64,000 bases of DNA from NCBI RefSeq assembly GCF_965641715.1, contig NZ_OZ282454.1. One strand, given 5' to 3'. The position numbers and the translations under genes are program-made. Below, one piece after another: positions 1-38,769 of this stretch. Within the stretch, counting starts at the first letter, position 1; every line of letters begins with the position of its first letter. The DNA comes from Escherichia coli. GTDB lineage: Bacteria > Pseudomonadota > Gammaproteobacteria > Enterobacterales > Enterobacteriaceae. The notes below the pieces were generated by a model that did not search any database, had not been told where the DNA came from, and saw nothing but the letters and a program-made list of their open reading frames with translations.

Positions 1-198
1 AACCTGCCTGCCGTTGCTGAGGCGGAACCAGCGGGGGGCTGGCTTTTCTGTCCTGGCTGACGTGCCTGCTGCAGGTTGTGCAGGCTGCGCGGCCATGCCC
101 TGCGGATTCCAGAGTCGTTCAATTTCATCCCGGGTGGAGGCCTGCACGGCAGCGGCTGCCAGCAACAGGGTGAACAACAGTGATTTAATGAGAGACAT
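1..198 (-). CDS. trbB: TrbB periplasmic thiol:disulfide interchange protein, 5' portion only (gene runs off window start)
   Basis: minus-strand ATG at 198-196 gives MSLIKSLLF...; sits immediately downstream of traQ as in F tra operon order; recalled homology. Confidence 0.7.
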   Translation of the reverse strand, partial: MSLIKSLLFTLLLAAAAVQASTRDEIERLWNPQGMAAQPAQPAAGTSARTEKPAPRWFRLSNGRQV

Positions 199-469
199 GT
201 CTGCCCTCCTGCTGCCCTTCCATCATGGCCTGTTGCCTGGCTTCCAGTGCCTCACGCTCTTCCCGGCTGACACGGGCAATCCATGCATCCAGCACCTGGT
301 ATGCGCCGAACAGCACAAGGATGGCCGCAATCAACTCCGCCAGAAAAAAAGCCATCCAGGGTTTGCTGTAAACAAGACGGGCGACGATATGAAACCAGAC
401 ACCCAGGGAAAATACCCACATTCCCGTAATATCAAGCCGGGGTAAAGAGAATCTGCGTTTACTTATCAT
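185..469 (-). CDS. traQ: TraQ pilin chaperone
   Basis: 94 aa ORF matching recalled F TraQ (MISKRRFSLPRLDITGMWVFSLGVWFHIV...); operon position. Confidence 0.9.
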   Translation of the reverse strand: MISKRRFSLPRLDITGMWVFSLGVWFHIVARLVYSKPWMAFFLAELIAAILVLFGAYQVLDAWIARVSREEREALEARQQAMMEGQQEGRHVSH

Positions 470-587
470 GTTAAACTCCGGTTATTATTTACATGAGAGT
501 ATTTATGTCTGTAATATTCGCGTTTGTGTGATATTAATCAGATCAACCTCATTATTTTGTATGGTTTTTATTACCGTTTTATATGAC

Positions 588-935
588 TTAGCCTGTCATA
601 AGCCCCCTTATAAAAAACCACATCACTCCGGACCATACTGATGACAACATAATACAGATAAATATTCTTCTGAACCCGTCGAAGCTCGTAACGTTCGGTA
701 ATGAGCCAATAACCATTGGAACAACCATTGCTGCGCCCTGATTCATAATTGCACCACACAGAAACCAGAGACTGGCAGTCAGCACATATAAACACGCGAT
801 ATTAATAACAAGGAAAACCAGTGAGCTCAGGAGAAACATTTTCCTGTCATTACGCTCAGAAAAGAAATAACCGGCAATAATGACAAATATTAACAGAACA
901 ACACCTGTAAACATTTTCAAACAATCTTCACTCAT
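588..935 (-). CDS. trbA: TrbA inner-membrane protein
   Basis: 115 aa hydrophobic ORF, same length and position as F trbA. Confidence 0.8.
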   Translation of the reverse strand: MSEDCLKMFTGVVLLIFVIIAGYFFSERNDRKMFLLSSLVFLVINIACLYVLTASLWFLCGAIMNQGAAMVVPMVIGSLPNVTSFDGFRRIFICIMLSSVWSGVMWFFIRGLMTG

Positions 936-950
936 AAATCAAATCCGCGA

Positions 951-1694
951 TTAAAAATTGGGTTTAAAATCTTCAGAAACGTTCAGGAATTGTTTTGCCA
1001 GGTCGTCCTGCGAAATAAAACCGTATGATAACGGACGAACACTACCCTGTTTCGGGTCAACCAGCATCATGGCCGGGAAATATTTCACGCCGAGGCGCTG
1101 CGCCTGCCCCTGGTCAGTCCGGGAATCCGGCAACAGCGGATTAATCACGCCATCCACGGAAACGGGAATAACACTCAGACCATAGGTATCCCTGAAGCCA
1201 TTAATGACCTGCGCCAGCTGCCCGTCGATGGGGTCCTGCCCCCGGTAAAAGAACATGATGCCGTAGTGTTCAGCCAGTTTCGCAATGGCCTGTCGCTGCT
1301 GCGCCTGGTCTGCCGCCAGCTGGTTCCGGACCGTGCCGTTGTAATGGCTGTACTGCAGGTTATAGTCCAGTTCGGGATGCGCCAGTATGGCTTTTTTGGC
1401 GCTCATGGTGAAAAGCCCGGCCTGCTGAGTCCAGTAATTCTGCAGCCGGAAATATTTCACAAAATTATCCACGCCGGGATACAGAATAGCTTCGTACAGC
1501 GCCCGCTTTGTTGCCGTCTGCAGTGCGGCCAGTTTCTGCATAATGTCCGGCTCCTGACGGGGGGCTGCAGGTACTGGTTTATTTTCTTTTTCCTTCGGAT
1601 TTATTTTCTCGTTATACCACTGCCAGCCTGCATCTTTTCCTGACGCCGGAAAAATAAAGCAGCAGAGTAACCGTGGCAGTAATGCTTTATTCAT
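951..1694 (-). CDS. traF: TraF pilus assembly protein (thioredoxin-like)
   Basis: ORF 951-1724; start placed at internal Met (MNKALLPRLL) giving 247 aa as in F TraF. Confidence 0.88.
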   Translation of the reverse strand: MNKALLPRLLCCFIFPASGKDAGWQWYNEKINPKEKENKPVPAAPRQEPDIMQKLAALQTATKRALYEAILYPGVDNFVKYFRLQNYWTQQAGLFTMSAKKAILAHPELDYNLQYSHYNGTVRNQLAADQAQQRQAIAKLAEHYGIMFFYRGQDPIDGQLAQVINGFRDTYGLSVIPVSVDGVINPLLPDSRTDQGQAQRLGVKYFPAMMLVDPKQGSVRPLSYGFISQDDLAKQFLNVSEDFKPNF

Positions 1695-1947
1695 CTTCAT
1701 TCCTTTCATCACTTTTTCTTTCATCAGGTTTCTGCAGGTCAGTCAGGGCAGAAAAACAAAAATACAGAATAAACAGGAGCACACCGGAGTAAAAAATAAC
1801 GAAAGCAGCAGCAAGTATCTCACCTGCAGTGGTTTCTTTTACCGTATCCCACGACCAGATAATTACCGGGGAAATGACAATCGCTGTAATCAAAAGCCGG
1901 ATAAGAAAATCAATAAAACGGTTCGACGTGAATATGACTTTCATCAT
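1687..1947 (-). CDS. trbE: TrbE small membrane protein
   Basis: 86 aa ORF, hydrophobic, position between traN and traF as in F. Confidence 0.8.
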   Translation of the reverse strand: MMKVIFTSNRFIDFLIRLLITAIVISPVIIWSWDTVKETTAGEILAAAFVIFYSGVLLFILYFCFSALTDLQKPDERKSDERNEDE

Positions 1948-1970
1948 TTTCCCCGGTTATTTTCCCTACC

Positions 1971-3779
1971 TTACTGTCCTGCCTGTTTCAGCTGGTCAGC
2001 AATCTGCTCTTTCACTTTCTGCGTCAGAACACCACTGTCCGGGATTTTCTGGTTATTCATCAGGTCTTCGTAGAAGTTAGTGAAATCCAGTCTGTCGAAC
2101 TGAATTTTCTGCAGCTCATCAACCGTAATCCCCCGACAGTCAGGATGTTTCGCACTGCCAAAACTGATACGCAGCTGTCCGTTGCGCCCCTGCTGCTGGA
2201 CTATCTGCGCCAGCTTCGAATCAAACTGACAGTAACTGCGTTTTTTCTCCAGGCAGACACCCAGCACTTTCTTCGAACAGAACTCTCCGACACTGACGGT
2301 CAGTTTGTTTGATTTTGCTTTAGCCAGGGCCTTTTCATCACTGCTGCATTTGGCCAGCCCGATATCCTGTCCCCAGCCGCTGTCCTTACAGCAGTTGCTG
2401 TATCCGGCTGCAGCCTTCTTACAAAATTTCGCCTGACCGGTGAAAGCACGGACATCCACCCCGTTCAGCGCCGCAACATCCTTACCTGCTGCGGCCAGTG
2501 CCGCCAGCTGAGAAACGGCTTCGGCAAAATCATTACTCTGCCCGCTCTGAGCCTTATCACATTCGCCATCGAGACAGAAGACGTCTCCCCCACAGACCAT
2601 CACTTTCCCGGATGTTTTTGACTCACAGGAGTAGGTGGCATATTCATGCAGACAGGCACCTTCTTCGGAGTAAAAGGCGCACTGGTGTGACACCAGGGTA
2701 CAGGCAGGATTGTCGGTGTAGGTCTGACAGGTTCCCTTGTCTGCTGACTGCGTGACATACGTGTCCCGGTATGCCCAGCAGCTCTGGTACATGCTGTATG
2801 ACTGACCATCTTTCACCAGCGTCCTGTTCTCGCCAGCCTCCGTACATTCTGTTTTTGTCAGTTTCCCCAGCTCCTTGCTGAACGGGCAGCTTTCAGACCA
2901 GACAACATACGGGGTGTACGAGGCTTTTTTTACCCTGACAACCAGACGCAGCTTCATTGCCGTATGACGTCTGAATTTTGTATTCCCGACCCGGACGGGG
3001 TGAGATGACGTAAAAGCAACACCGGCAGTCAGTGTTTTCTGTACTGGTGTAAATGAGGCATCTGCTGAGTATTTGGCATTCCAGCTCAGTGGGGTTCCCA
3101 GTACTGTAATTGTCATAGGTACACTCTTCTGCAGGTAAGTACGACTCCAGCTGTAATGCGCATCGACAATTTCACCGGTAACGGGAGAGGTAATGGAGAC
3201 AACATACTGACCATTCACTTCACGTGCAGGTAGCTGACTCATTTCATACTCCAGCGTCCGGGTTTCCCATGTGGTACTCCCCTGCAGCTCCATACGGGCA
3301 GTTCGTGTGCAGTACTGCTCCACCTGTAAATCCCTCTCACAGGAGTAATTCGTGTATTCACTCCGGCTAATCTCCTGCGCACTGCACTGCTGCCCGGTGT
3401 TTCCCACAATGCTGTCAGCCCGGTTCACCACATCCCTGCCGGTCTGGATAAACGGTGCATCCGGTGAAAGAATGTCTTTCGGCTTGTTCATGAATGACTC
3501 TGTGATGGTTTTTCCGGTTTCACCGGTCGCCCATTCCGTGGTGCCGTCATTTTTCAGGCCACCATCCCCGCCGGCAGTCACGCCACCGTAATATTTTGTC
3601 TCGTCCGGATTCGCGTTATAGCCGGGGATACTCTCCTGTGGCTTAAAGCCCTGAATACTGCTGCTTCCCTGTCCTTTGATCTGGTGAGCAAAATCAGAGC
3701 CGGCCCGGTAATCACTGTTGCTGTCAGCCTGTGCCATGCCGGCAACCAGAGCCAGTATCAGAGGTAAAATACGTTTCAT
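1971..3779 (-). CDS. traN: TraN mating-pair stabilization outer-membrane protein
   Basis: 602 aa Cys-rich ORF with signal peptide; length and position match F TraN. Confidence 0.92.
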   Translation of the reverse strand: MKRILPLILALVAGMAQADSNSDYRAGSDFAHQIKGQGSSSIQGFKPQESIPGYNANPDETKYYGGVTAGGDGGLKNDGTTEWATGETGKTITESFMNKPKDILSPDAPFIQTGRDVVNRADSIVGNTGQQCSAQEISRSEYTNYSCERDLQVEQYCTRTARMELQGSTTWETRTLEYEMSQLPAREVNGQYVVSITSPVTGEIVDAHYSWSRTYLQKSVPMTITVLGTPLSWNAKYSADASFTPVQKTLTAGVAFTSSHPVRVGNTKFRRHTAMKLRLVVRVKKASYTPYVVWSESCPFSKELGKLTKTECTEAGENRTLVKDGQSYSMYQSCWAYRDTYVTQSADKGTCQTYTDNPACTLVSHQCAFYSEEGACLHEYATYSCESKTSGKVMVCGGDVFCLDGECDKAQSGQSNDFAEAVSQLAALAAAGKDVAALNGVDVRAFTGQAKFCKKAAAGYSNCCKDSGWGQDIGLAKCSSDEKALAKAKSNKLTVSVGEFCSKKVLGVCLEKKRSYCQFDSKLAQIVQQQGRNGQLRISFGSAKHPDCRGITVDELQKIQFDRLDFTNFYEDLMNNQKIPDSGVLTQKVKEQIADQLKQAGQ

Positions 3780-4417
3780 TTCCCGGAATCTCCTTTCCCT
3801 GCCAGTAAATCATGAGCCACCTGCCGGCAGTCACCCGTGGCGGCCACTTTCTCCAGCGCCTGGCCGACCCGCAGGTTTCCCCGGATGATGTCGTATCCCT
3901 GACTGCAGAACACCACCAGTGCCGGTACACTGCGAATGCCGTACTGTGAAAACAGCGTCGGGTCGATCTGAACACCATCAGTCGCGCCGTCTTTCACCAA
4001 GGACAGCACGGCTTCAGCGGTGGTCTTCAGGTCATTGTTCACCATGCCCCGCAGTGTGGCGGGTATACCGTAGTGCCGGGTTTCGCCCAGCATTCGTTTC
4101 AGCCCCTCTTCGGGAATGGAAAACGACACAAAATACAGAGCACCCTGCCGGGGTTTCCCGTCCTGCGAAGCCTGCTGTTTACGAACCAGCTCATCCAGGA
4201 AATGGTTATCTGAACGCTGAAGGGGGTTTTCCAGCACCTGTTTCCCCGCCCAGGCTTTCAGCTGATGGTCAGGTTTTTCACGCAGTTGTCTGCTTAAATT
4301 TTCCTGCTGCTTCAGGAACTGGCGGTTTTCAGGAGTGTTCACGTTTTCTGACGCCATAACCGCCCCGTTCAGCATCATCAGCAGTGCTGCCAGAGATTTC
4401 ATACTCAGCTTCATCAT
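3776..4417 (-). CDS. trbC: TrbC pilus assembly protein
   Basis: 213 aa ORF with signal peptide; operon position. Confidence 0.88.
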   Translation of the reverse strand: MMKLSMKSLAALLMMLNGAVMASENVNTPENRQFLKQQENLSRQLREKPDHQLKAWAGKQVLENPLQRSDNHFLDELVRKQQASQDGKPRQGALYFVSFSIPEEGLKRMLGETRHYGIPATLRGMVNNDLKTTAEAVLSLVKDGATDGVQIDPTLFSQYGIRSVPALVVFCSQGYDIIRGNLRVGQALEKVAATGDCRQVAHDLLAGKGDSGK

Positions 4418-4422
4418 TCACC

Positions 4423-5415
4423 TCACAGGAAGACACAGTTACGTTTACGCCACATCAGGTAGCCGAAGTTTTTCTTTGTATTGGGCGGATTTTTCCCGGT
4501 TTCCCAGCGGGTCACACTGCGCCCGAACGGGTGGCACTGTCCGCTGTCCGGGTACATATTCACCATCTGATAACGCCAGCGTTCTTTGGGCAGGATTGGG
4601 GACGGATATTCATTACAGACGGCGTTATTTTTCCCGATGGTTTCCATAATCATGCCCTGACGGTGCAGCTTGAACGCCATGCGTTCACTGACCAGCAGGG
4701 AGGACTGCAACGGACTGGACTCATTACTCACCCAGCCATTGAACGGGTACATACTGCCCTGCGAACCGGCACACTAGAACAGAACATCGAGAGGCATATT
4801 AAAGGCGCTGGCAATGGCATCTGCTGCACAGGCCCCCTGTGCTATCGGATTGGCAAAGATGACAGCTTCCGGATTGAGAATGGTGGTCAGGCTGCTGTCC
4901 GTCCAGGTGGGGTCAATTTCAGAAAGATAAGCGATATCCAGGTCACCACCTTCCAGACAGCCCAGCGATGTGATGATGTTAAGCCAGTACGTCAGCGGGT
5001 ATTTGTACCAGTGAACGTGATAGAACGCCCCGTTCACCTGCTTCTCATCTTTTTTCGCCGTTCCCTGTGCCGTTTTACCAAAAGCCGGCAGGCTGAAGCC
5101 CAGGTTAACCATGCATCCCGGTGACCGGGTGACGTCCGTCAGCGCCATCGGCTCCCAGTAACCAATGGCCAGCCCGATACGCCTGAACAGCGGCGGCGGT
5201 GCCGGACAAATCTGAATGGGCATCGACGGGTTCGCCGTGTCGGGGACCTTACCCTGACTGACTTTGATACTGCCCAGCGAGAGCGGGAAAATACAGCTCC
5301 AGCAGATATCCGTGATCGGGTTTACAAAACGCCCCTCACAGGCAGAATCCGCAGACGCTGCAGGGACATGACCGGCGAGAAGGAATAACATCAGCAGCCA
5401 CAGGCTTCGCTTCAT
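4423..5415 (-). pseudogene. traU: traU interrupted by an in-frame amber (TAG) stop at 4774-4776
   Basis: ORFs 4774-5415 (213 aa) and 4423-4752 (109 aa) are in the same frame, separated by TAG plus 7 sense codons (CAGSQGS); combined 330 codons equals full-length F TraU. Confidence 0.8.
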
Positions 5416-6044
5416 TTTCTGCCCTCCTCTGCCGGAATAAATTCCACCTTCAGGAAGCGATCGCCGGGAACGGCGCTCACCCGTGCCGGGACCTGATCAA
5501 TGCCGAGGCGCTGGCAGAGCACACCGTTCTGGTCAAAGTAAACACGGCTGTCCAGAGACTTCTGCATCTCCGGGATACTGCCCTGCACGAGGATAATTTT
5601 GCTCTCCAGTGTGGGCGGCGTCTGGCGTTTCATCCAGGCCACCTGCGCCGGATCATCGCCATTGATGAAATACAGCGTCTGGTTAAAAGGAACATACTGC
5701 AGCGGATTCATCACTTCACCCTGACGGGCAAACACCCGCCCTTCGTTATCCCGGATATCCGCAGCCAGTCTGACGGACGGGTCAAACAACCGGCTACCGT
5801 ATTTCTCCGTGCGTCCGATACCGGGCACGGCAGGGGGCCGCAGACTGTTGCGGATCACCCGCTCCTTAAAGGCATCCATTTTCCGGCCCATCTCACCGGA
5901 CTGCTCCAGTGCCGTCAGGCGCTGCATGATCACCGTCAGCATGTCCGGCTCCTTTACCGGCCACAGATCGCCCCAGGTACCAAGATCGGCGGCGGCCACA
6001 CTCTGCCCCCATATCAGCAGGGCAATCAGCCCCCGGCATCTCAT
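5412..6044 (-). CDS. traW: TraW pilus assembly protein
   Basis: start placed at internal Met (MRCRGLIALL) for 210 aa as in F TraW; signal peptide. Confidence 0.85.
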   Translation of the reverse strand: MRCRGLIALLIWGQSVAAADLGTWGDLWPVKEPDMLTVIMQRLTALEQSGEMGRKMDAFKERVIRNSLRPPAVPGIGRTEKYGSRLFDPSVRLAADIRDNEGRVFARQGEVMNPLQYVPFNQTLYFINGDDPAQVAWMKRQTPPTLESKIILVQGSIPEMQKSLDSRVYFDQNGVLCQRLGIDQVPARVSAVPGDRFLKVEFIPAEEGRK

Positions 6045-6427
6045 GGTTCCGCCCTCATTCGCCGGGCAATATCCTGCTGGATTTCCCGGGTGATATCCGG
6101 TGCCCCCTGTACCACAGCAGGCGACACCAGAATGACCGCGTGGTGTTTCTGCTGCCACGCCTGCAGGCTGGCTTCCAGTGCCGTGTTAAAACGCGCTGAA
6201 AGGGCTTTTGACTGTGCTTCTGACAGTTGTTTCTGACTGGCGCTGTCAAAAAACGCATCCACGGTCTGTTTCATGTTGAAGGCGACAGTCACCGGTGCGT
6301 TCAGTCTGACAATGCCGTAGCTGACGGCTGCGTTCAGTAACACTATTGCCAGGCATCCCGGCACCGTCCACCACCAGTGGCTGCGTCGTTCTGCCGTGAC
6401 GTCGGCGGGTTTCTGCGTTGAACTCAT
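6041..6427 (-). CDS. trbI: TrbI pilus retraction protein
   Basis: 128 aa ORF; operon position directly after traC. Confidence 0.85.
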   Translation of the reverse strand: MSSTQKPADVTAERRSHWWWTVPGCLAIVLLNAAVSYGIVRLNAPVTVAFNMKQTVDAFFDSASQKQLSEAQSKALSARFNTALEASLQAWQQKHHAVILVSPAVVQGAPDITREIQQDIARRMRAEP

Positions 6428-9054
6428 GCCACACTCCTGTATTTCTCATGTTCTTCCAGCCAGGCTTCCAGCGAAGCCATCTCCGGCCCTGACTTCTTCC
6501 ACGCCAGCTGCCACACCGCCTCATGAATACTCAGCCCCTCTTTACGCTTCTGCTGCACAAACTCAAAATCCGGGCCGTCAGAGCTGTACATGGCGCGGCT
6601 TAACGGGTCCACAAACAGACGGTGCCAGGAGGAGTGGTTCTCCACCTGCAGCAGGAAGGAACTGAACCACTGGTCTTTGGCCGCACCAAACTTACCAATC
6701 ATGTCGCGCTGCAGTGGCAGGAACTGGTCCGGATACAGCTGGTTGTATTTCGCGAACTCCTTCGCACTCTGTTTGAGGATCATTTTGTAGGAGGAGTTAC
6801 CCCATGCCGCGCGGGCAGCACTGGAGGCCTTGTCAGAGTCAAAGTCGACGATGTTCTGTGTGATGGTGATATAGGCACCGGTATGACGGCGGGCGGTACG
6901 GTAGCCTTTCTCAATAAATTCACCGACCTTGTGATTTTTGAAGTCCAGCAGACGCCAGCCTTCATCAATAACGTTCAGTTTCTTGAGGTTACGCGGCGTG
7001 CGGTACATCCTGTTCTCGATGTAGATAATCAGGGAGAACATCACCGCAACCAGCAGTGACGGACGGTCTTCCAGTCCGCCCAGCTCCAGCACCACCATTT
7101 TTGCGTCATCCCGCAGGGACGGCTCATCAGAGTTAAAATACTGGCCGTAAGTGCCGTTGGCAGTGTACTGGTCAAGCAGCACAATCATTTCGTCCAGACG
7201 GCTGCGGATAGTCGGTGACTCGGCATACTGCTCGCTGTCACTGGCGTTTTTCAGGAAATCCACCACGTCATCAATACGTGCCCTGTTCTCTTTGGCCAGC
7301 CATGATGCCCTGACCGCCTGCAGCAGCAGACCTTCATGCACTTCATCCAGGTTACCGTTGGGGCTGGCCATCACCGACAGCTGGTCGCGGACACGCTCCG
7401 CTGACTGGTCAATATCGGTGATGTTCGCAAACGGGTTAAAGCGCAAGGTTTCACCGTCCAGATATACGCCCCCCATGTTCTCACACAGGGACTTGTAGCC
7501 ATCCCCCATGTCGAACACCACGGCAAAGCCCCCGGAGTCCAGCACGCTGCGGATAAGTGGCTGTATCAGCCCGGTTTTACCGGCCCCGGAGGTGCCACAG
7601 ACCGCCATGTTGTAGTTGGTGTTATTCATCCCCCGGAAGAAAATATCGATAAACGCCAGCTGGTTACGGTAGGTGGGTGCCAGCAGACCTGCCGGTGTCA
7701 GGGGGTTATCCGCCACTAACGGCATCAGGTTGGCAACATTAAAGCTCTCTGCGCGCTGAACCACTCCGGCCTCTTTCAGCTGTTTAAACAGCCCTTTCCC
7801 GGCCATAAAGGGCAGGCAGGTCAGGAAATTGCGCATGTGGTTAAAGCGCGGTGAAATCAGCTCAAAACCGTTTTTACGAAAGCTGTTCAGGATGTCCTGC
7901 TCCACTTCCAGCGCCGTTTCATTATTGTCCTTGCAGAATGCTGTGATGTTGAGGAAGTAGGACACCACGGAGGACTGACCGGAGCCCAGCCGCTGACGCA
8001 GTTCCCCCCACTCCTTCGCCTCTTTCTCCACGGACGGAAACCATTTGGCATAGGAGGTCTTCGACTTTTTCTCCAGGTCCATGTACTTCAGGCTGGCTTC
8101 GCTGTGGGTTTTCACCTGGTCTTCCACCACCAGAGTCAGCGTCAGGATGAACGGACAGGAGATGGATAATTCCGGGTTCAGCAGGTTGCTGTAGTTGTCG
8201 GCCATGTTCCACAGGAAGGCGATTTCCGGGTTACGGGCCAGATGGAAATTCAGGATGCGGGCCGTGCTGTTCCTGCCGTTCTCACGCAGGCCCAGCGTCA
8301 GGTAATCAGCCCGGACTTTCAGATCAAAACTGTCCTCCACACACTGATAATTCAGATCAGAATACGGGTCCAGCTGACGTCTTTTCGGGTACAGGGAGTC
8401 CGGGTTATGGTTAATCATCTCCCCGACAATATCGATAAAGGCCTGTGCATCCACCGTCTGTGTGGTGATACTGGCCCCCTGTAACGACGCCCGGATGATT
8501 TTCACCAGGTTTTCCATTTCCAGAATGTCGGCCCGGCTTTTTTTCTTCGAAGGAGAACAGTACGAGATAAACACCCGGTAATGGCGCAGGGTCAGGGGCA
8601 GATTCATCCCCTCCGGCAGCGGAAACTGTGTCGCTGCCGCTTTCATATAATAGGCCCGGGTAATGGCGTTAAACCGTTCAGCCTGTTCACCTGACCAGGA
8701 GAACTCACGCAGCCCGTATTCAATCCTGTCACCAACCAGCTGACTGGACATCAGATGGATACACAACGGAATACCGCGCGGCAGTTTGGTGCGCAGCATG
8801 TGATCGAGGGCCTCCACAATGGACTCATTCGCCCCATTGATGGGAATGGCTTCCAGCATAAAGCCCATCGTGGTGTCATTCATGAACAGACCGGATTCCT
8901 GGTTATAATCACGGTACGGCAGCAGACGGCTGAACTGCGGGAAGCTCATTTCGCCCAGAACTTCATTGGCCTTTGCGGATTCGTCAGGCAGTTTCAGTGC
9001 TGTGACGAGGGAGTTAACCGCCTGAGTGACGGCCTCAAGTGGGTTATTACTCAT
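6424..9054 (-). CDS. traC: TraC conjugative ATPase (VirB4 family)
   Basis: 876 aa ORF near-identical to recalled F TraC N-terminus (NNPLEAVTQAVNSLVTALKLPDESAKANEVLGEMSFPQFSRLLPYRDYNQESGLFMNDTTMGFMLEAIPINGANESIVEALDHMLRTKLPRGIP); Walker A GTSGAGKT. Confidence 0.96.
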   Translation of the reverse strand: MSNNPLEAVTQAVNSLVTALKLPDESAKANEVLGEMSFPQFSRLLPYRDYNQESGLFMNDTTMGFMLEAIPINGANESIVEALDHMLRTKLPRGIPLCIHLMSSQLVGDRIEYGLREFSWSGEQAERFNAITRAYYMKAAATQFPLPEGMNLPLTLRHYRVFISYCSPSKKKSRADILEMENLVKIIRASLQGASITTQTVDAQAFIDIVGEMINHNPDSLYPKRRQLDPYSDLNYQCVEDSFDLKVRADYLTLGLRENGRNSTARILNFHLARNPEIAFLWNMADNYSNLLNPELSISCPFILTLTLVVEDQVKTHSEASLKYMDLEKKSKTSYAKWFPSVEKEAKEWGELRQRLGSGQSSVVSYFLNITAFCKDNNETALEVEQDILNSFRKNGFELISPRFNHMRNFLTCLPFMAGKGLFKQLKEAGVVQRAESFNVANLMPLVADNPLTPAGLLAPTYRNQLAFIDIFFRGMNNTNYNMAVCGTSGAGKTGLIQPLIRSVLDSGGFAVVFDMGDGYKSLCENMGGVYLDGETLRFNPFANITDIDQSAERVRDQLSVMASPNGNLDEVHEGLLLQAVRASWLAKENRARIDDVVDFLKNASDSEQYAESPTIRSRLDEMIVLLDQYTANGTYGQYFNSDEPSLRDDAKMVVLELGGLEDRPSLLVAVMFSLIIYIENRMYRTPRNLKKLNVIDEGWRLLDFKNHKVGEFIEKGYRTARRHTGAYITITQNIVDFDSDKASSAARAAWGNSSYKMILKQSAKEFAKYNQLYPDQFLPLQRDMIGKFGAAKDQWFSSFLLQVENHSSWHRLFVDPLSRAMYSSDGPDFEFVQQKRKEGLSIHEAVWQLAWKKSGPEMASLEAWLEEHEKYRSVA

Positions 9055-9179
9055 ATGAGTATTCCTTAGTGCGTTTAAAAAAGGAAAATATCAGTCTGTG
9101 GCCGTGGATATATCACGCAGTGCCATTCCTGAAACCACAGCACAAATAAGAGATGGAGGCTTTTAACAGGAAACTAGGA

Positions 9180-9569
9180 TTAACGTTCCTTTACTGAATG
9201 AGCATCATTTAATGCCTGAATTTGTTTTTCGCGAATCTTATTGCGCTCATTTTCTCTTACCCGTTTCACCTCTGCCATTTCGTTTCTTTCTCTACACGCT
9301 GATGCAAGCTCTTTTGCCTTACCAAGACTTAAAGGTTCAGGCTGATAATCAGATGTGTCAGACTTAATAGCTTCCTTAAATGCTTCTGCTGCACAGGGGA
9401 TATCCTGTGTAATCTCTGTCAGTTGTTCTGGTGTTGCAGGTTGTTGCTCAAGGTAGTCATTGTAAAAAAGACCACATATCAACATAGCCATAACGCCAAC
9501 AAATATAAAAGCCAGAACAGATTCTAAATATATCGACTTCATTTCATTTTCCTTTGAAGCAGTAAGCAC
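9180..9569 (-). CDS. hypothetical membrane-anchored protein (cargo inside tra operon)
   Basis: 129 aa ORF with one N-terminal TM helix, charged C-terminus; AT-rich relative to flanking tra genes; no homolog recalled. Confidence 0.5.
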   Translation of the reverse strand: MLTASKENEMKSIYLESVLAFIFVGVMAMLICGLFYNDYLEQQPATPEQLTEITQDIPCAAEAFKEAIKSDTSDYQPEPLSLGKAKELASACRERNEMAEVKRVRENERNKIREKQIQALNDAHSVKER

Positions 9570-9785
9570 TCATTGCCCCCCATTCAGTGTATCCATCACG
9601 TTGTTCAAAGGTTTATTTGTTTTAACTTCAATACATTCCCCTGTATTTCCAAATCCCCTGCCTCCGTGTGATTCGATTGTCCGAAGAACCTGCACGCATA
9701 CGTCCGTATTTGGCATGGGTGTAATATTCCAGCTTCCGCCACCGTTAATATTTTTTATCAGCACAAGAAAAATAAAGGTATGCAT
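9570..9785 (-). CDS. hypothetical small protein (cargo inside tra operon)
   Basis: 71 aa ORF abutting 9180-9569 (stop/start adjacent); AT-rich. Confidence 0.35.
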   Translation of the reverse strand: MHTFIFLVLIKNINGGGSWNITPMPNTDVCVQVLRTIESHGGRGFGNTGECIEVKTNKPLNNVMDTLNGGQ

Positions 9786-9864
9786 TCTTTATTACCTCCG
9801 CTTGTATATTAATCACTGAATATCCCTTCAGTTAACTTATGAGGTCATAAAACACTGCAGATTC

Positions 9865-10338
9865 TCATTCGGATTTATTCCCTTCAGTAAACTTCCGAAT
9901 AGTATCCTGTTCACGCTGACGGGTGGCAGACTCCTGCATTGCATCCACTTTCTCCTGCCAGAGACGCCGGATATCCTTTTCATCCCGACCAGTCAGTTTT
10001 TTACCGGACAGCAGACGGTTAAGCAGTTCCTGTCTCGCATCCGGTACGTCTTCAGTCAGACGCATAAGCTGAACCAGGCTCTGACGGCTGAGGACCATGA
10101 GTGATTCCGGCAGGAGGGTGAAGAAGAAAATAAAAAAGCATACCGCACCACAGCAGGCAAGGACCGCAAACAGGATTTTCAGATATATACCATCAACGCC
10201 GAACGCAGCAATAATACAGGGAATCCATGCAATACACGCACAAAACGCCAGGATGTTATATATCCGGTTATGTCTGCAATATATCTGTTGATGTTCATCC
10301 AGAATAAAATCTATTTTTTCATTTTCTGATTTATGCAT
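9865..10338 (-). CDS. hypothetical two-TM membrane protein (cargo inside tra operon)
   Basis: ORF 9865-10377; likely start at internal Met (MHKSENEKIDF); Cys-rich hydrophobic hairpin then charged tail. Confidence 0.5.
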   Translation of the reverse strand: MHKSENEKIDFILDEHQQIYCRHNRIYNILAFCACIAWIPCIIAAFGVDGIYLKILFAVLACCGAVCFFIFFFTLLPESLMVLSRQSLVQLMRLTEDVPDARQELLNRLLSGKKLTGRDEKDIRRLWQEKVDAMQESATRQREQDTIRKFTEGNKSE

Positions 10339-10552
10339 AGTGTTTCCTCTGCCTTTCCTGATACGCCTGACATTCAACGCACAACGTCACACCGGGAAAT
10401 ATTTTCCGCCGGGCTTCCGGAATAGGATTTCCGCATGCTTCACAGAGATAAACAGGAATACTATGAACATTTATTTTCTGGCGTATCCGGTTTATTCCTG
10501 TCATGGTCAGTTGTTCTGTCACTGAATATGCTTCATCGGCTTCATCACTCAC
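10331..10552 (-). CDS. traR: TraR (DksA/TraR C4 zinc-finger family)
   Basis: 73 aa with CxxC...CxxC (CEACGNPIPEARRKIFPGVTLCVECQ). Confidence 0.9.
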   Translation of the reverse strand: MSDEADEAYSVTEQLTMTGINRIRQKINVHSIPVYLCEACGNPIPEARRKIFPGVTLCVECQAYQERQRKHYA

Positions 10553-10686
10553 GGAATATTCCTCCCGACATGTTCTGACACGCTACCGCCCATCCCTTTT
10601 CACGCACAGGGCACTCGTTTTACAGGCAGATTATGAATACAGAAAGCCCGCCGGCATTGCCGGCTGATATACAACTTCAGGGCCAG

Positions 10687-11202
10687 TTAATTAATGCGTG
10701 GTTTTCCCCACGCAGACGGTTTAATAACAAAAAACACGCTGGATGGCTGATGATAAACATCCTGATTATCAATATAAGGCGCTATCCATAATGCTGCCGT
10801 CTGCTCACCCGTTCTTAGCGGACGGGGAGGTGTTACCGGCGCAACTGAACTGACCGGAACAACCGTTTTCACTTCCCGGGCAGCCGTAAACAATGGACGT
10901 GGTGCCAGCAGTTTCTGCTCCGGAAGTGCTGTCACCGCTGGTCTGCTGCCGGACGGAGTGGTCGCGGTGACGGTCTGCACCGGCATTGTCCGGAAGTTCC
11001 CTTCAGCCAGGCGCGGCAGTGATGCCGCAACCGGCTTTGCTTCTGAGGACTGCTCCAGTTTTTTGGCCTTCTCATTGGCCTGCTCCATCGTCATACAGGT
11101 ATCGGATGTGGTGGCGTTACACTCAAATTCCGTATTTGTTCCAGCGCAGCCGGAAAGTAATAAGGTCCCCAGCAGAGGAATAAATAAAGAAATCTGTTTC
11201 AT
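10687..11202 (-). CDS. traV: TraV outer-membrane lipoprotein
   Basis: 171 aa; lipobox LLLSGC; operon position. Confidence 0.9.
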   Translation of the reverse strand: MKQISLFIPLLGTLLLSGCAGTNTEFECNATTSDTCMTMEQANEKAKKLEQSSEAKPVAASLPRLAEGNFRTMPVQTVTATTPSGSRPAVTALPEQKLLAPRPLFTAAREVKTVVPVSSVAPVTPPRPLRTGEQTAALWIAPYIDNQDVYHQPSSVFFVIKPSAWGKPRIN

Positions 11203-11450
11203 TGCCCTTCACCTTTTTTATTACTCCCCACAACAGCAGAAATTAACTCTGCTGTCAGATTTGTTTTCCCTGCACAGGGATGTCCGGAGACCACTGTATT
11301 TCCCGGAGAAGAAAATAAGCTCATCGACATTCCCTTCTTCATCACACCGACAGCAGCCATATTAAAATTGTGCGGCAATGATTCAGAACTGAACTCCTTC
11401 GGAGCAGGAAGAACTATTTTTGTGGTGCAGTTACTGAGAACAGCATGCAT
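11199..11450 (-). CDS. trbG: TrbG
   Basis: 83 aa from internal Met of ORF 11199-11567; length and position as in F; trbD location not resolved. Confidence 0.6.
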   Translation of the reverse strand: MHAVLSNCTTKIVLPAPKEFSSESLPHNFNMAAVGVMKKGMSMSLFSSPGNTVVSGHPCAGKTNLTAELISAVVGSNKKGEGQ

Positions 11451-11505
11451 AAAATCATCTGATACGTTTTTATCTGGCACAACGCGGGCTGTAATAACAT
11501 TAATA

Positions 11506-12096
11506 TTACGCATGTTCATTTTTATCTCCGTTGCTTCTGTTTGTTCGGTCATCAGGGAAATAAACATGGCATTTCCTGATTTTTCCCGGCAGGGAAGCGT
11601 CTTCCGTATAAACGTCCTTCAGATATTCATCTGCGGTTACCACCCGGATACATTTCATTTTTCCGGGCAGCACCGGATATTTCCCGGTGATCGCTGCCAG
11701 CGAGACATACATCAGTGCCAGTGTTGCCCATAATGCGGTGACCAGTTGCATCAGTGACCGGTCAGTCTCCCTGACATAATCTGCAGCATCAGCCGCGCGG
11801 TAATGGCAGATATCCTGTATTTCTGATCTGCCTGAAGAATCAGAGGAAGAAAACCAGCATTCACTGACCGGGAACTGTCCGGCAGGTGCTGTTTGTCTTA
11901 CGAAGTTAATCTCCTTAACCAGTAATTTCCCCGGCGTGGTGTTGTCCTTCCATAAAACAAACAGAGCCATCAGGGCCATTGTGGCCAGAGGCAGAATGAC
12001 GGTGTACTTCAGACACCAGAACAGTCCTCGCAGAACCCGGGCGACAACATACCGGGCGGCATGGCACGCCTGACGGGCCGACATATTATTTGCCAT
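11506..12096 (-). CDS. traP: TraP inner-membrane protein
   Basis: 196 aa as in F TraP; operon position. Confidence 0.85.
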   Translation of the reverse strand: MANNMSARQACHAARYVVARVLRGLFWCLKYTVILPLATMALMALFVLWKDNTTPGKLLVKEINFVRQTAPAGQFPVSECWFSSSDSSGRSEIQDICHYRAADAADYVRETDRSLMQLVTALWATLALMYVSLAAITGKYPVLPGKMKCIRVVTADEYLKDVYTEDASLPGKIRKCHVYFPDDRTNRSNGDKNEHA

Positions 12097-13513
12097 CGTT
12101 GCCTCCTCCCTGGCTGCCGGACATAAACTGCTGCGGATTCAGGTTGCCCAGCTGCTTCAGCATCTGGTCAGTATTAAAGCCGTTAAGATGACTTTCAGCT
12201 GATGGCGGAACAGGAACCGGACTTTCCGGATTATCTTCTTCCGCTCTGTTCTGCGTGCGCTCCAGCGCCATCTCTTCCACGGTTTTCAGCTGGAAGCCGT
12301 CCTGGAACACCACGGTCACTTCGTTGCCCGCACCAATCGGTATCACCGGGTGATACTGTTCGGCACGTTTGATGTAGTAGTCACTGAGCGTCTGTGCGGC
12401 TTTCGATGCGCCGCCACCGATACCCATTTTAAGGACATCGCCGGCCCCGTAAGCAGCAGTGGCACCCAGCCCGACAGCCGGCTGGGAAGCACGCTCCATT
12501 CCCTGACCGATACCGTCAACAAATCCCGCGCCCCATGCCCAGCCGAGGATTTTGCCGTTACGCATCACCACTTCGCCCTTAATACCGTTTTTACCCCGGA
12601 AGCTGACATGCCCCTTAATCGGCATATCAATGGTTTTGCCGTCCTTCAGGCAGCTGATATTGCGGGTACGTACAATGGCACGCTCACTGGAGACATCCCC
12701 CCAGGCTTCCAGACCCACAAAACATCCCTTTGCGTCATACGTTTTGCTGTTCGGCATTTCCACCAGGCCGATGATACGCAGCTGCATCGGCACCGTGGAT
12801 TCATTACCAGTAACAGAGGCATTGGCATCCGCCCCTTCAATCAGCATGGCTTTCGCAAAACTTCCTGACGGAATGTACGGCAGCGAGGGGCCCTGTTTTC
12901 CCTCATTACGGGTGAACACCTTACGCTGTATCCGGTTAGGCACCGGTACAGACTGGTACGTCACCTGCGGTGGTGGCGTGACACCATTCCCGGGATAAAA
13001 CGCCGTCGGCGGTGGAACAGCAACGCTGCCCTGCGGCGGGAAAGATACGGGTGTGTTTCCTGGCTGTGGTTCGCCTTCCGGGCCGGGCGGTGAGGCTGGC
13101 GTCTGCGGTACTGGCTCACCGGTCGCGGTGACAGGATTTGCACCCAGGGCTTTCACCTGCTCTGCCAGTGCAGCATTGTCCTGTCCCAGCTTTTCAATAC
13201 GACGCTGGTCATCACCGCGCTGTTTGTTCAGGACATCCAGCTCACGACGGATTTCCTCATACTGCTTCTGCATCTGTGCTGCCGTCACCTGCATCTCTGT
13301 GGTGGCATGCTGACGCACCTTGTCATCAAAGGTCGTATCCACCACACCGGTCATATCCGGCACAGGCTCCTGTTCAGCCACGGTTTCACCGTTACCGGAC
13401 ATGTCCACATCAGACAGATACAGTGCCCCACCAATCGCGGAGGCTGCACCGACAACCACAATCCCCAGCCACAGGTACTGCTTGCGTTTCACAATGGTAT
13501 TGATACTGGCCAT
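12086..13513 (-). CDS. traB: TraB (VirB10-like)
   Basis: 475 aa, N-terminal TM, Pro-rich linker, conserved C-terminal domain. Confidence 0.93.
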   Translation of the reverse strand: MASINTIVKRKQYLWLGIVVVGAASAIGGALYLSDVDMSGNGETVAEQEPVPDMTGVVDTTFDDKVRQHATTEMQVTAAQMQKQYEEIRRELDVLNKQRGDDQRRIEKLGQDNAALAEQVKALGANPVTATGEPVPQTPASPPGPEGEPQPGNTPVSFPPQGSVAVPPPTAFYPGNGVTPPPQVTYQSVPVPNRIQRKVFTRNEGKQGPSLPYIPSGSFAKAMLIEGADANASVTGNESTVPMQLRIIGLVEMPNSKTYDAKGCFVGLEAWGDVSSERAIVRTRNISCLKDGKTIDMPIKGHVSFRGKNGIKGEVVMRNGKILGWAWGAGFVDGIGQGMERASQPAVGLGATAAYGAGDVLKMGIGGGASKAAQTLSDYYIKRAEQYHPVIPIGAGNEVTVVFQDGFQLKTVEEMALERTQNRAEEDNPESPVPVPPSAESHLNGFNTDQMLKQLGNLNPQQFMSGSQGGGNDGK

Positions 13514-14241
13514 CAGTTGCCCTCCCCGTCACGGATGACATACACATCCATGCGCGCACCTGCCAGTAACTGGCTGGCAGGCTGGCTGAACATCACGGCA
13601 CGGGTTCCCGGCTGCCAGAAGTCACTTTCCCGGATATTCAGGGCAGACAGCGTTTTATTTTCCACGGCAAAGCGGATCATCTTCAGGTGATTCCCCGTCC
13701 ATACAGCATCTGCCACTGAAGACAGCCCCGCCGGGGTCTGCAGGGTTTCTTTTGTCACCGGGACCTGATACCAGCCTGCAGGTAATTTTCCGCCACGGAC
13801 GGCTTGGCTGATGGTCACAAGCAGGGATTCGTAAGGCGTGGACGTTTCCCACGCTCCGGCTTCTTCTCCGGTTCCGCGCAGGTCACTGACCAGCTGAATG
13901 GTACGCCCCGCGCCTTCACGGGGAACGGCCTGAATGGAAAGATTCAGACCACGTTCTGTTTCCAGAATGAACGTAAAGGGCTTTTTGTTGACGGTGGCCA
14001 CCACCACACCGCCGGAGGCGGTCTGCTCATTATTGGTCAGGGCACCATCCAGACTGTTCACGGCGATAATCCGGTCACCGGGAACGGTAAACAGATTCGG
14101 GCTGGTATTGCTGATGGCAATACTGGCCTGACCACCGTTCACCATTGGCACCACGGTGGGGGCCAGCGTACCGTTTGCGGCCATCACGCTGCAGGAAAAA
14201 AACAAGCTGCCGAATATTATTGCCGTATTATTTTTTCTCAT
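13513..14241 (-). CDS. traK: TraK (VirB9/secretin-like)
   Basis: 242 aa with signal peptide; operon position. Confidence 0.9.
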
Positions 14242-14794
14242 CGTCTGTTTCCCCGAAATTATCCAGCCAGGTCACCCCGTTTTCCCGCTTCAGAATAAGG
14301 ATGTAATGTTTGATATCAGTGAAAGGTTTTGAATCACCAATCCAGGTTTTAAGCACACCACGAATTTCCACACGGCCATACTGAGGCCAGACACGAACAC
14401 TGGTCTGGAAAAAGGCTGAGTTCACGTTATCGTTTTTAATACGCTTCGCTTCTTCAGCCAGAATAACTTTCATCTGGTTCTGTGCGCCCGGGCGGATATA
14501 TTGCAGAAGCGCCTGATGTGAGGCATCGACGGTTTCTGATGAAACATTCAGACGGAGGGCAATAAATGACAGCGCCATCTGCTGTAAATAAGAGGCGTCG
14601 GCACTGTTCTGTGACACGGCAAAGGGGGCATTAAATGCCATTGGCGTCACGGCAGTGCGTTGCTCATTCTGAAGACGGTAGTTATTCACCACCTGAATGA
14701 CGTTAACAGAGAGGCTGAGAACAATAAGCACTGACATAAATATAAAGGCGATGGCCATTACACGACTGGTACTTAAACGGGCACCGTGTTCCAT
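14228..14794 (-). CDS. traE: TraE pilus assembly protein
   Basis: 188 aa, single N-terminal TM; length matches F TraE. Confidence 0.9.
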
Positions 14795-14815
14795 ATAACA
14801 ATCCTGGTATCAGTT

Positions 14816-15127
14816 CTATTTAATCCACTGCCGGAAACACGAATCGGGAACATTATGAAAAATACCGCGCAGCAGGGCTGTTGGCATATACCAGTAAATC
14901 AGGTCTCGTAACCAGGAACTGCCCCGCCCTTTTTTCAGTTTTTTAATCCCGAAATAAACCAGAACCGCTGCACCAATACCGAACAGATATTTCGATGTTG
15001 TGATACCCCAGCCAATACAGATTGCTGCGGGGATCAGTTCATCCAGTGGCAGGCCAAACCAGCGGCTCTGGTTGGTCAGTGTTTCCGGGAAACGATATTT
15101 CTTAAGTTTATTCTCGTCTCCCGACAT
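14816..15127 (-). CDS. traL: TraL pilus assembly protein
   Basis: small membrane protein directly downstream of traA; true start may be internal. Confidence 0.8.
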
Positions 15128-15141
15128 CGTTTTATTTCCTG

Positions 15142-15501
15142 TCAGAGGCCAACGACGGCCATACCCACAGCAATAAATACAGAGATGATGGCAAAACCGG
15201 CCAGGAACTTGACGTTTTTGGTCATCATGTACATGACCGCACCGACCAGAACTTCAGCCAAAACGACCCATTTAACAACACTGGAGTCCTTACCGAAGGT
15301 CGCCTTAACCGTGGTGTTACCGCTTGCCATCAGGTCCTGGCCCTGTGCTGCCATTGCCAGTTGCGGGAAGAACATCATCAGAACAGCAGCCGGGATCACA
15401 GCGCGAGCCAGGCGAAGCATATTCAGACGAGTGAATTTAGAAAAAAACGACTTCTTTTTGACGGGCGCAGAAGCACCCTGAACACTTAAAACAGCATTCA
15501 T
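15142..15501 (-). CDS. traA: TraA propilin (F-pilin precursor), group II / ColB2-like N-terminus
   Basis: 119 aa; leader ...FFPQLAMA then mature [21 protein letters not shown]...; 2 aa shorter than recalled F (AGSSGQDL). Confidence 0.92.
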
Positions 15502-18665: not shown

Positions 18666-19328
18666 CTAGGTTGTCCAGAGATCGTTCTGTTTATCCTCCC
18701 AACGGCGGGGAGTAATTATTTGTTCAGGCGTCACTGGCGTTTTATTTTCATCTTCATACCTGACCATCAATGCAGCTCTGCCAAATAAATATTGTTCGTC
18801 ACTGTTAAGATGTATCCCTTTCATTGTCTCCATATTTTCAGTGACTTTATCAAAGACACCGGGCACTTCATACGCTCCCTCAATAACCTGCCCGACAATA
18901 TCACCTTTATGTGGAACGCGGATTTCGCCAAAATTATTCCCGCACACCAGGCCATTTGTGTAGACAAAACGAAAAATTCCTGGGATCATCTGATAACTGG
19001 ATGAACCATCATGTGAATTAAGCAGGGTAATTTCAGGAACTTCTTTCCCGTTAATATGCCCTTCCCTGCGAAGACGTAACATATGTTTACTGTATTCGCG
19101 GCGTCCCAAATCACGAACCCGACTCTGACAGGCAAAGAACGGCTGGAAACCTTCATCACGTAACTTATTGATGATATTGATGGTTGGGATATATGTATAA
19201 CGCTCACTCCGGGATTCATGTTTATCACCAGAAAAAACAGATGGAACAAACTGCATTAATTCGTCATCCGTTAACGGGCGCTCACGGCGAATAGAATTAT
19301 ATCGACCAAAACGGGAAGCTAATCGCAT
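18666..19328 (-). CDS. hypothetical leading-region protein (possibly DUF932-like)
   Basis: 220 aa ORF; family assignment from memory only. Confidence 0.55.
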   Translation of the reverse strand: MRLASRFGRYNSIRRERPLTDDELMQFVPSVFSGDKHESRSERYTYIPTINIINKLRDEGFQPFFACQSRVRDLGRREYSKHMLRLRREGHINGKEVPEITLLNSHDGSSSYQMIPGIFRFVYTNGLVCGNNFGEIRVPHKGDIVGQVIEGAYEVPGVFDKVTENMETMKGIHLNSDEQYLFGRAALMVRYEDENKTPVTPEQIITPRRWEDKQNDLWTT

Positions 19329-30120: not shown

Positions 30121-31459
30121 CATAAGCGCTAACTTAAGGGTTGAACCATCTGAAGAATGCGACGCCTCGGTGCCTCGTTAAGACGATGCCTCGCGTTCTT
30201 CAATTGCGTTTTGTAGGCTGTCAGGGATACTGTCCCACGAATGGCCACCTGTAAGCTCCAGATGACCATTTTTGTTATTCTCCACAACGAGTTAGTTCTT
30301 CTTTTCGGATCCGGCACTTCTGGGGGGGAAATCCAGCGATGGCTGGATTATGTCGTCAATTAAAAATGCGGCGAGTAGATTAGCAAATATCCACGCTTTC
30401 GCGAGTTCAGGTTCCTTTGCACGCAAAGCATCCAGGTGCAGCAAACTTTTGAGCCGCTTAAAAGCCAGTTCAATTTGCCATCGCAGACGGTAACAATCAG
30501 CCACTTGCTCTGCTGAATATTCATCTTCCGGTAATGATGTTAGCAATAGCACATGGCCCGCTGCTTCCAGCGTTTCCGCCTGAACTACTCGTCCTTTTCG
30601 ACGATTCTCGCTGAGCAGTCGGGTTTTACTGATTAATGCTTTTTCGGGAGGAAGTGATACGGCAATGAGACGTGCCGGAAAGGGAGCTCCGGCTTTTTTA
30701 TTACCTGAATTGCCTATCATTACAGTGGTTTCACCGTTCTTACCGCAATCCAGCCCGCGCAGAAAACCCATCATGTCAAAGCGCATTCCTTCTGCAGTTA
30801 ACCAGCGCAATCCTCGCCAGTGAACCCGGACGATATAATCAGCTTCTCCAAAAGCAAGTGAGCGGATACATTCGGGACGCGAACCGAATCCCCGGTCAGC
30901 AATGCGTATCTCGTCTGCCGTTTGCGCAAATCGGTCCAGCCGTTCAGCGTCTCTGCTGTCGGTTAGCTCAAAATCAGTGAACTGACAGGTATGAGGATCA
31001 TATCCCATATGTAGTCGCCATTCAGCGCTGCCGCCCCCGGGCGCACTGATTGCTGTTCCATCGACAAGACGCAATCTCTTTCCGCTTGTACAACCCGTAA
31101 CTGCGGCGCGTACAGCAAGTGTTTGTGCGGCAAGTATGCCAAACCAGTCGGCGGCATTCCGCAGCCGCTTCAGGAGAGCCACGTCAGATAATGTTGCAAC
31201 GTCATGGAGCTGAGCCCATGCAGTGACTTCACGTAATGACATCCCCCCGGGGCCGTAAGCCAGCCCCAGACGTAGCAGAGTTGCAGCATCACGAATTTCG
31301 CGGCGGCGGGTTAGAGCCCCGGCATTACGTGCCGAAGTATCCAGTTCTTCGGGCTTACCAATATGGGCCAGAATTGCTGACCAGTTATCGTGAGAGTAAT
31401 TCATCGGCACGTTAAATCATATCAGGCGTAATACCACAACCCTTAAGTTAGCGCTTATG
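30121..31459 (-). mobile_element. IS186 (IS4 family), complete, with target-site duplication
   Basis: 1339 bp; terminal inverted repeats CATAAGCGCTAACTTAAGGGTTG (30121-30143) and CAACCCTTAAGTTAGCGCTTATG (31437-31459); flanking direct repeat GGATTCTCCC(C). Confidence 0.9.
30292..31410 (-). CDS. IS186 transposase
   Basis: 372 aa ORF matching recalled IS186 transposase (MNYSHDNWSAILAHIGKPEELDTSARNAGALTRRREIRDAATLLRLGLAYGPGGMSLREV...). Confidence 0.92.
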   Translation of the reverse strand: MPMNYSHDNWSAILAHIGKPEELDTSARNAGALTRRREIRDAATLLRLGLAYGPGGMSLREVTAWAQLHDVATLSDVALLKRLRNAADWFGILAAQTLAVRAAVTGCTSGKRLRLVDGTAISAPGGGSAEWRLHMGYDPHTCQFTDFELTDSRDAERLDRFAQTADEIRIADRGFGSRPECIRSLAFGEADYIVRVHWRGLRWLTAEGMRFDMMGFLRGLDCGKNGETTVMIGNSGNKKAGAPFPARLIAVSLPPEKALISKTRLLSENRRKGRVVQAETLEAAGHVLLLTSLPEDEYSAEQVADCYRLRWQIELAFKRLKSLLHLDALRAKEPELAKAWIFANLLAAFLIDDIIQPSLDFPPRSAGSEKKN

Positions 31460-37576: not shown

Positions 37577-38769
37577 TCGCGACTTGATCTGACACATGAC
37601 CTTGAAAGGTTGAGAGTTACCGGTTTTGATATGGGTGTCGAATCCTTATACAAAACACGAGGTAACTCTCATGCTTCATACTACCAATCCCGTCATCAAA
37701 CACAAAGCCGGTTTGCTCAATCTGGCTGAAGAACTCAGCAATGTATCAAAAGCCTGTAAAATCATGGGCGTTTCGCGTGATACATTTTATCGCTATCGCG
37801 AACTGGCCGATGAAGGCGGTGTGGATGCGCTGGTTAATCGTAGTCGCCGCGCCCCTAACCTTAAGAACCGTACCGATGAGCTAACTGAGCAGGCCGTTGT
37901 CGATTATGCCGTCGCTTTCCCGGCGCACGGTCAGCACCGGACCAGCAACGAGCTGCGCAAACAGGGCGTTTTTATCTCAGGAAGTGGTGTCCGTTCTGTC
38001 TGGCTGCGCCACAATCTTGAAAACTTCAAAAAGCGTCTGAAAGCACTGGAAGAAAAAGTGGCTCGTGATGGCATTGAACTGACCGACAGCCAAATAGCCG
38101 CGCTGGAACGTAAAGCCAGCGATGACGAGGCTTGTGGTGAAATTGAAACCGCCCATCCAGGTTATCTGGGTTCACAGGACACATTCTATGTCGGCAATCT
38201 GAAAGGTGTCGGGCGTATTTATCAGCAAACATTCGTTGATACCTACTCGAAGGTTGCTCATTGCAAGCTGTATGTCACCAAAACACCGATTACTGCGGCT
38301 GATTTACTGAATGATCGTGTGCTGCCGTTTTATGCGTCTCAGGGCCTGCCAGTGCTCAGAATACTGACAGACAGAGGCACAGAATATTGTGGCAAAGTGG
38401 AGCAGCATGATTACCAGCTTTATCTGGCAATAAATGACATCGACCACACAAAAACTAAAGCGATGTCACCGCAGACGAATGGTATCTGCGAACGGTTCCA
38501 CAGGACGATATTGCAGGAATTTTATCAGGTCGCGTTCCGCAAAAAGCTGTATGGCGAACTCGACACATTACAGTCGGATCTTGATGAATGGCTGGCTCAC
38601 TATAATAATGAGCGAACCCATCAGGGGAAAATGTGCTGTGGCCGGACGCCAATGGAAACGTTACTTGATGGAAAGCACATCTGGGCTGAGAAAAATTTAA
38701 GCCAGATGTAATCTGACAGATACCTGTATAAATAACCGGTAACTGTCAGATCAGGTCTGAGCTAATACA
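37569..38769 (+). mobile_element. IS481-family insertion sequence, copy 1 (ends plus/minus about 10 bp)
   Basis: ends TGTATTAGTCGCGAC...GAGCTAATACA; one DDE transposase ORF; identical copy inverted at 48591-49790. Confidence 0.75.
37626..38711 (+). CDS. IS481-family DDE transposase
   Basis: 361 aa; N-terminal HTH; integrase core with SPQTNGICERFHRTILQEF. Confidence 0.85.
   Translation: MIWVSNPYTKHEVTLMLHTTNPVIKHKAGLLNLAEELSNVSKACKIMGVSRDTFYRYRELADEGGVDALVNRSRRAPNLKNRTDELTEQAVVDYAVAFPAHGQHRTSNELRKQGVFISGSGVRSVWLRHNLENFKKRLKALEEKVARDGIELTDSQIAALERKASDDEACGEIETAHPGYLGSQDTFYVGNLKGVGRIYQQTFVDTYSKVAHCKLYVTKTPITAADLLNDRVLPFYASQGLPVLRILTDRGTEYCGKVEQHDYQLYLAINDIDHTKTKAMSPQTNGICERFHRTILQEFYQVAFRKKLYGELDTLQSDLDEWLAHYNNERTHQGKMCCGRTPMETLLDGKHIWAEKNLSQM

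Follow-up and report, generated by a model that had tools for sequence, protein, structure and literature searches.

An amber codon at Trp214 interrupts traU of a field-type F-like plasmid of Escherichia coli

On the minus strand of the 64,000-nucleotide stretch of E. coli DNA analyzed here (the window), the program-made ORF list and the sequence place two ORFs in one frame, 4774..5415 and 4423..4752, where relatives carry a single traU. The arrangement raises the questions of whether the two ORFs are the parts of one interrupted gene, whether the interruption is a heritable feature of the plasmid, and what it would cost the plasmid in conjugation. The upstream ORF comprises 213 amino acids followed by TAG at 4774-4776, the downstream ORF comprises 109 amino acids followed by TGA at 4423-4425, and the 21 nucleotides between them form seven sense codons (CAGSQGS), giving a codon count of 213 + 1 + 7 + 109 = 330. 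The initial annotation had read this arrangement as a TraU of F length, 330 codons, with the TAG as its sole lesion; all of its coordinates and arithmetic are correct, and a single-frame translation of 4423-5415 encounters no internal stop other than codon 214. The mutated base is window position 4775, where a transition (nucleotide 641 of the gene, G>A; C>T on the plus strand) changes codon 214 from TGG (Trp) to TAG (amber) in the local sequence TTC TAG TGT. The frame 3′ of the amber codon is open and identical to that of intact orthologues up to the normal traU stop, which is overlapped by the Shine-Dalgarno sequence of trbC itself (GAGGTGA). Judged from the sequence, the split pattern is not due to chance. 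The parts of the locus, its neighbors, and the derived coding changes discussed below are collected in Table 1.

Table 1. Parts of the interrupted traU, flanking genes, and derived tra coding changes (window coordinates)
Feature	Position	Strand	Basis
traU 5′ fragment, codons 1-213, with signal peptide and N-terminal two thirds of the TraU domain	4777..5415	-	NF010297 positions 1-213, 443.6 bits; identical to NZ_CP024151.1 traU
Amber codon TAG, codon 214, ancestral TGG	4774..4776	-	relatives, outgroups, F
traU 3′ remainder, codons 215-330 and TGA (4423-4425), in frame and unchanged	4423..4773	-	NF010297 positions 222-330
Mechanical ORF within the traU 3′ remainder, beginning at Met222	4423-4752	-	ORF list
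traW (context), 4-nt overlap with the traU start as in intact relatives	5412..6044	-	annotation of relatives; gapless collinear alignment
trbC (context), beginning 6-9 nt past the traU stop	3776..4417	-	annotation of relatives
traF L8R, hydrophobic core of the signal peptide	1672 (codon 8)		
traU W214*	4775		
traP S7A	12078 (codon 7)		
traB T248I	12771 (codon 248)		
traE G35V	14691 (codon 35)		

The identity of the gene is supported by family models and by its position. Both fragments align to the NCBIfam TraU equivalog NF010297 (330 positions), the first to positions 1-213 and the second to positions 222-330; with the cutoff at 298 bits, the repaired protein reaches 732.9 bits and the N-terminal fragment alone 443.6 bits, while the C-terminal fragment alone, at 247.1 bits, falls short of it. 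The Pfam TraU family (PF06834) is matched as one domain covering residues 28-328 of the repaired protein (E = 8.9e-110). The gene occupies the slot between traW and trbC of an F-type tra operon, collinear with annotated relatives, but an uninterrupted ORF of about 330 codons spanning the whole TraU domain is missing, the TAG standing at codon 214. As in a nonsense pseudogene, the stop takes the place of a conserved sense codon and leaves the remaining frame unchanged. By sequence and synteny, then, the gene is assigned as traU, in the form of a nonsense allele or incipient pseudogene rather than an intact member of the family.

Comparison with relatives identifies the ancestral codon. Over 993 nucleotides, the window traU and the intact, annotated traU of NZ_CP024151.1 differ at the amber base and are otherwise 100% identical, bearing out the TAG as the only lesion in the gene; the same lone traU difference is seen against CP057088.1 (pRHB38-C15_2), the nearest whole-plasmid relative. 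An alignment to F traU (NC_002483), which the initial annotation had suggested as a check, gives TGG at codon 214 and thus Trp214 as the ancestral residue, and the ancestral base is present at the position of window 4775 in all 11 of the outgroup tra loci aligned. Among 4,764 PLSDB and 2,956 RefSeq complete E. coli records with traU, none matches the window traU at 100%, the best matches in both collections being one mismatch away. A search of 1.84 billion representative proteins yielded 56 full-length homologues (31-47% identity), which were aligned with the repaired TraU. Tryptophan occupies the Trp214 column in 56 of these 57 sequences, within a conserved motif, LFWCAGxQGxxYP. All 57 continue for 110-136 residues beyond this column, which disposes of the concern that reference TraU proteins might genuinely end here.

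The stop removes the last 117 of the 330 residues of TraU and, with them, 4 of its 11 cysteines (215, 267, 294, and 327). Twelve of the 28 invariant or near-invariant columns lie at or past the stop (W214, C215, G217, G220, P224, G227, C267, K277, P287, G298, C327, and C328). TraU is a periplasmic, cysteine-rich, F-specific component of the type IV secretion system with an N-terminal signal peptide (PMC7555446, section 4.3). It is described as a “Class II” F-specific factor, deletion of which strongly attenuates, and does not abolish, transfer and piliation (PMC10939261); in traU nulls both are strongly reduced and some residual pili persist (PMC10939261; summarized in the review PMC7555446). 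No relative of TraU was found among solved structures in the PDB. A scan of 4300-5500 for promoters and terminators revealed nothing relevant.

In the sequence of events that we propose, the single G>A transition at 4775 produces W214amber, and translation would end after residue 213. The 213-residue product would be exported by means of its signal peptide, lacking the C-terminal 117 residues of the single TraU domain, and is very probably non-functional, although a fragment of this length may retain some residual function. The 3′ part of the gene would either go untranslated or be reached by re-initiation at the ATG of Met222, giving a 109-residue fragment that has no signal peptide, would be expected to remain in the cytoplasm, and so should be unable to complement a periplasmic protein. 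In non-suppressor hosts, with the other tra genes intact, the plasmid is expected to be attenuated in transfer. It is likely to be strongly transfer-attenuated and poorly piliated rather than absolutely transfer-dead. The initial annotation had proposed that the plasmid is probably transfer-defective; impaired transfer is indeed predicted, but “defective” is too strong, and since deletion of traU attenuates transfer without abolishing it, “transfer-attenuated” is the more accurate term (PMC10939261). As trbC has its own strong Shine-Dalgarno sequence, translational polarity on this downstream gene need not be severe. Taken as a whole, the explanation that W214amber is a real and heritable allele, that its product is non-functional, and that the plasmid is transfer-attenuated seems to us very likely to be correct.

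An alternative is that a suppressor tRNA of the host, or efficient natural readthrough of the UAG, still allows functional expression of traU, with the stop serving as a conditional down-regulator of transfer instead of a knockout. This would be in keeping with the perfect preservation of the frame 3′ of the stop and with the persistence of the allele in at least two genomes; a preserved frame is, however, what a very recent mutation would also show, and only 11 SNPs in 30 kb separate the window from its relative. No tRNA gene lies in the 64-kb window, which thus carries no suppressor of its own, and a recoding signal is not evident; a suppressor might, however, be encoded on the host chromosome, which lies outside the window. 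Natural E. coli seldom carry amber suppressors, and termination is efficient at a UAG with U as the next base. Even where suppression did occur, a residue other than tryptophan at a position conserved in 56 of 57 sequences might itself harm TraU. We therefore regard continued expression as very unlikely.

It is less probable still that both fragments are made and reassemble as a working split TraU. Met222, seven codons past the stop, is an ATG with a weak AGGG Shine-Dalgarno-like element upstream, and gene callers do call the 109-residue ORF, so that synthesis of a second fragment is conceivable. Against a working pair, TraU is periplasmic (PMC7555446) but the C-terminal fragment has no signal peptide; residues W214-S221, in the most conserved motif (LFWCAGxQG), are lost at the break; and a natural TraU encoded by two genes was not encountered among the full-length representatives.

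We return to the preferred reading, a nonsense allele, and to the evidence that it is real. An exact look-up of the 213-residue product mostly matched contigs whose sequence simply stops at codon 213, an artifact of exact matching, and only one match was a true amber allele. This was found in a reads-only Logan assembly, ERR15204800, in which the 213- and 109-residue ORFs adjoin and the latter is called by gene callers. An exact look-up of the 109-residue ORF was uninformative on the amber allele, its matches being for the most part error-ridden assemblies of long reads in which many tra genes are frameshifted. Window 1-15415 and the ERR15204800 contig match at 100%, and the contig shares all seven SNPs that distinguish the window from CP057088.1 in that span. 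The TraF-L8R protein, a lineage-specific marker, was found on about nine public contigs. One of them, in an NCBI draft (GCA_036953225.1, contig JAQOBE010000023.1), has the same TTC TAG TGT, and no traU product is called there. Over 13.2 kb, a single SNP, in traG, separates ERR15204800 from GCA_036953225.1, so the two are distinct genomes. Persistence of the allele in at least two distinguishable genomes would fit vertical inheritance, and would also fit some retained transfer.

The initial annotation had allowed for a sequencing substitution, the real plasmid carrying TGG and an intact traU. The difference is a single base, and the allele is absent from the complete plasmids of PLSDB and RefSeq E. 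coli, as an error of sequencing or assembly would predict; yet the identical TAG recurs in two further public data sets, each assembled independently, one of them reads-only and the two separated by a SNP. Moreover, over 30,121 bp the window differs from CP057088.1 by 11 substitutions and 0 indels; the absence of indels over 30 kb indicates that, unlike the error-ridden assemblies, it is not a noisy one. With two other genomes sharing the identical allele, the change is real and heritable, and we reject a consensus error as highly improbable.

The plasmid background bears on the origin of the allele. The window is approximately 99.9% identical to pRHB38-C15_2 (CP057088.1), an E. coli plasmid from pooled pig feces in the UK that is typed as IncFIA/IncFIB, MOBF, and MPF_F. 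Within the window, the cargo includes tet(A), numerous IS elements, and an AIDA-I autotransporter with its heptosyltransferase; for the STb (stb) and EAST1 (astA) toxin genes, the only known site is in pRHB38-C15_2, in a part of that plasmid beyond the coverage of the window. From its gene content, the plasmid is assigned as a wild, field-type F-like (IncFIA/FIB-type) plasmid of E. coli. The other fallback of the initial annotation, a classical laboratory tra amber allele (e.g. traU526 of F-lac) on a laboratory plasmid, deserves practically no credence: G>A at TGG is a typical mutagen-induced change and F tra amber mutants were isolated historically, but the window traU differs from that of F (NC_002483) at 23 nucleotides (22 with the amber base set aside) and, apart from the stop, at 3 residues, its content matches pRHB38-C15_2 from pig feces, with AIDA-I, tet(A), and IS elements, instead of an F (K-12) tra backbone, and the allele recurs in field-type assemblies. 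Moore et al. are said to have described, in 1990, the amber allele traU526 and the kan insertion traU347. A literature search on amber traU in the F plasmid found no report.

The window and CP057088.1 also differ at places away from traU. An insertion of 1,337 bp in the leading region (30122-31458), absent from CP057088.1, encodes a 372-residue IS4-family transposase (30292-31410, minus strand) and may be an IS186-like element. Past about 37.6 kb the window is joined in inverted orientation relative to CP057088.1 through a copy of an IS481-family element (junction 37644-38775), window 1-38775 corresponding to CP057088.1 78603-41178 reversed and window 37644-64000 to 114166-140512 forward, an arrangement suggestive of an inversion, mediated by an IS, that distinguishes the two plasmids. 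A 7-bp indel, TTACTGG, is present in the window at 50991-50997, and further small indels, several of them of 1 bp, are found at 39831, 40407, 42026, and 62142-62145; the 1-bp indels at 39831, 40407, and 42026 lie in a stretch without long ORFs in either plasmid. Upstream of orf169/traM, the gene at 18666-19328 (minus strand) is an ORF of only 220 residues, whereas a DUF932 (PF06067) gene of 273 residues stands at the matching place in another F-like locus. The PLSDB table of CP057088.1 has no annotation for the 220-residue ORF, which may be a leading-region gene that has been truncated or pseudogenized.

Within the tra operon, the window and the amber-lineage contig show no gene-breaking lesion other than the amber codon. 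From traM through traQ and the in-window part of trbB, the window shows only point substitutions relative to CP057088.1, and the amber-lineage contig carries traH (457 residues), traG (940), traS, traT, traD (735), traI (1756), and traX (248) at full length. With SNP polarity set by the outgroup tra loci (n = 11), all five of the derived tra coding changes of the window lineage are non-synonymous or nonsense, and no derived synonymous change was found (Table 1). Approximately 77% of random substitutions in traU would be non-synonymous or nonsense, so that five of five, against an expectation of about 0.77 per mutation, is not a significant excess (P ~0.27), and the pattern is suggestive at most. 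It remains unlikely, though it deserves mention, that the amber codon was selected, either by letting its bearer evade pilus-specific phages or by sparing it the cost of piliation and transfer, in an AIDA-I IncF plasmid that spreads clonally and also acquired other function-altering changes in pilus-assembly genes. In effect, the lesion marks either an early stage in the decay of the tra operon or a loss of piliation favored by selection, in a plasmid lineage that is passed on vertically.

The sister plasmid is damaged elsewhere. In pRHB38-C15_2, a frameshift divides traI into ORFs of 1574 and 251 residues (CP057088.1 87149-92549), and a frameshifted TraI was otherwise found in only one run, SRR11948820. 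Prior damage to traI in the amber lineage was considered and rejected, TraI being of full length there (1756 residues). The sister plasmids thus appear each to carry a different, independent tra-inactivating lesion.

The traU lesion is ordinary pseudogenization of an already-known kind and reveals no new mechanism. Its relevance is mainly to annotation and epidemiology: typing by gene content, by which MOB-suite classed the sister plasmid as conjugative, would over-call this one, and if transfer is, as seems probable, poor, vertical inheritance should account for most of the spread of the resistance gene tet(A) and the adhesin gene of AIDA-I. Mating and phage-sensitivity tests could, in addition, draw on the allele as a naturally occurring traU null.

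The closest point of comparison is the intact traU of F, which encodes 330 residues and has the same length and the same traW-traU-trbC-traN synteny as the gene described here, with 97.7% nucleotide identity. At codon 214, F has TGG and the window plasmid TAG, so only residues 1-213 would be made in a non-suppressor host. Loss of TraU is common to the window plasmid and the traU nulls of F and pED208 (the Christie-lab deletions, traU526, and traU347); those, however, are engineered or classical alleles, whereas the present one arose spontaneously on a wild plasmid and occurs in field isolates, its phenotype being predicted from theirs. Natural inactivation of tra genes is commonplace in IncF plasmids, where pseudogenes, IS insertions, and deletions lead to non-conjugative derivatives. 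Here, likewise, a single inactivating lesion accompanies a plasmid lineage that has been maintained, but the window plasmid stands at the very first step of such decay, with one nonsense codon.
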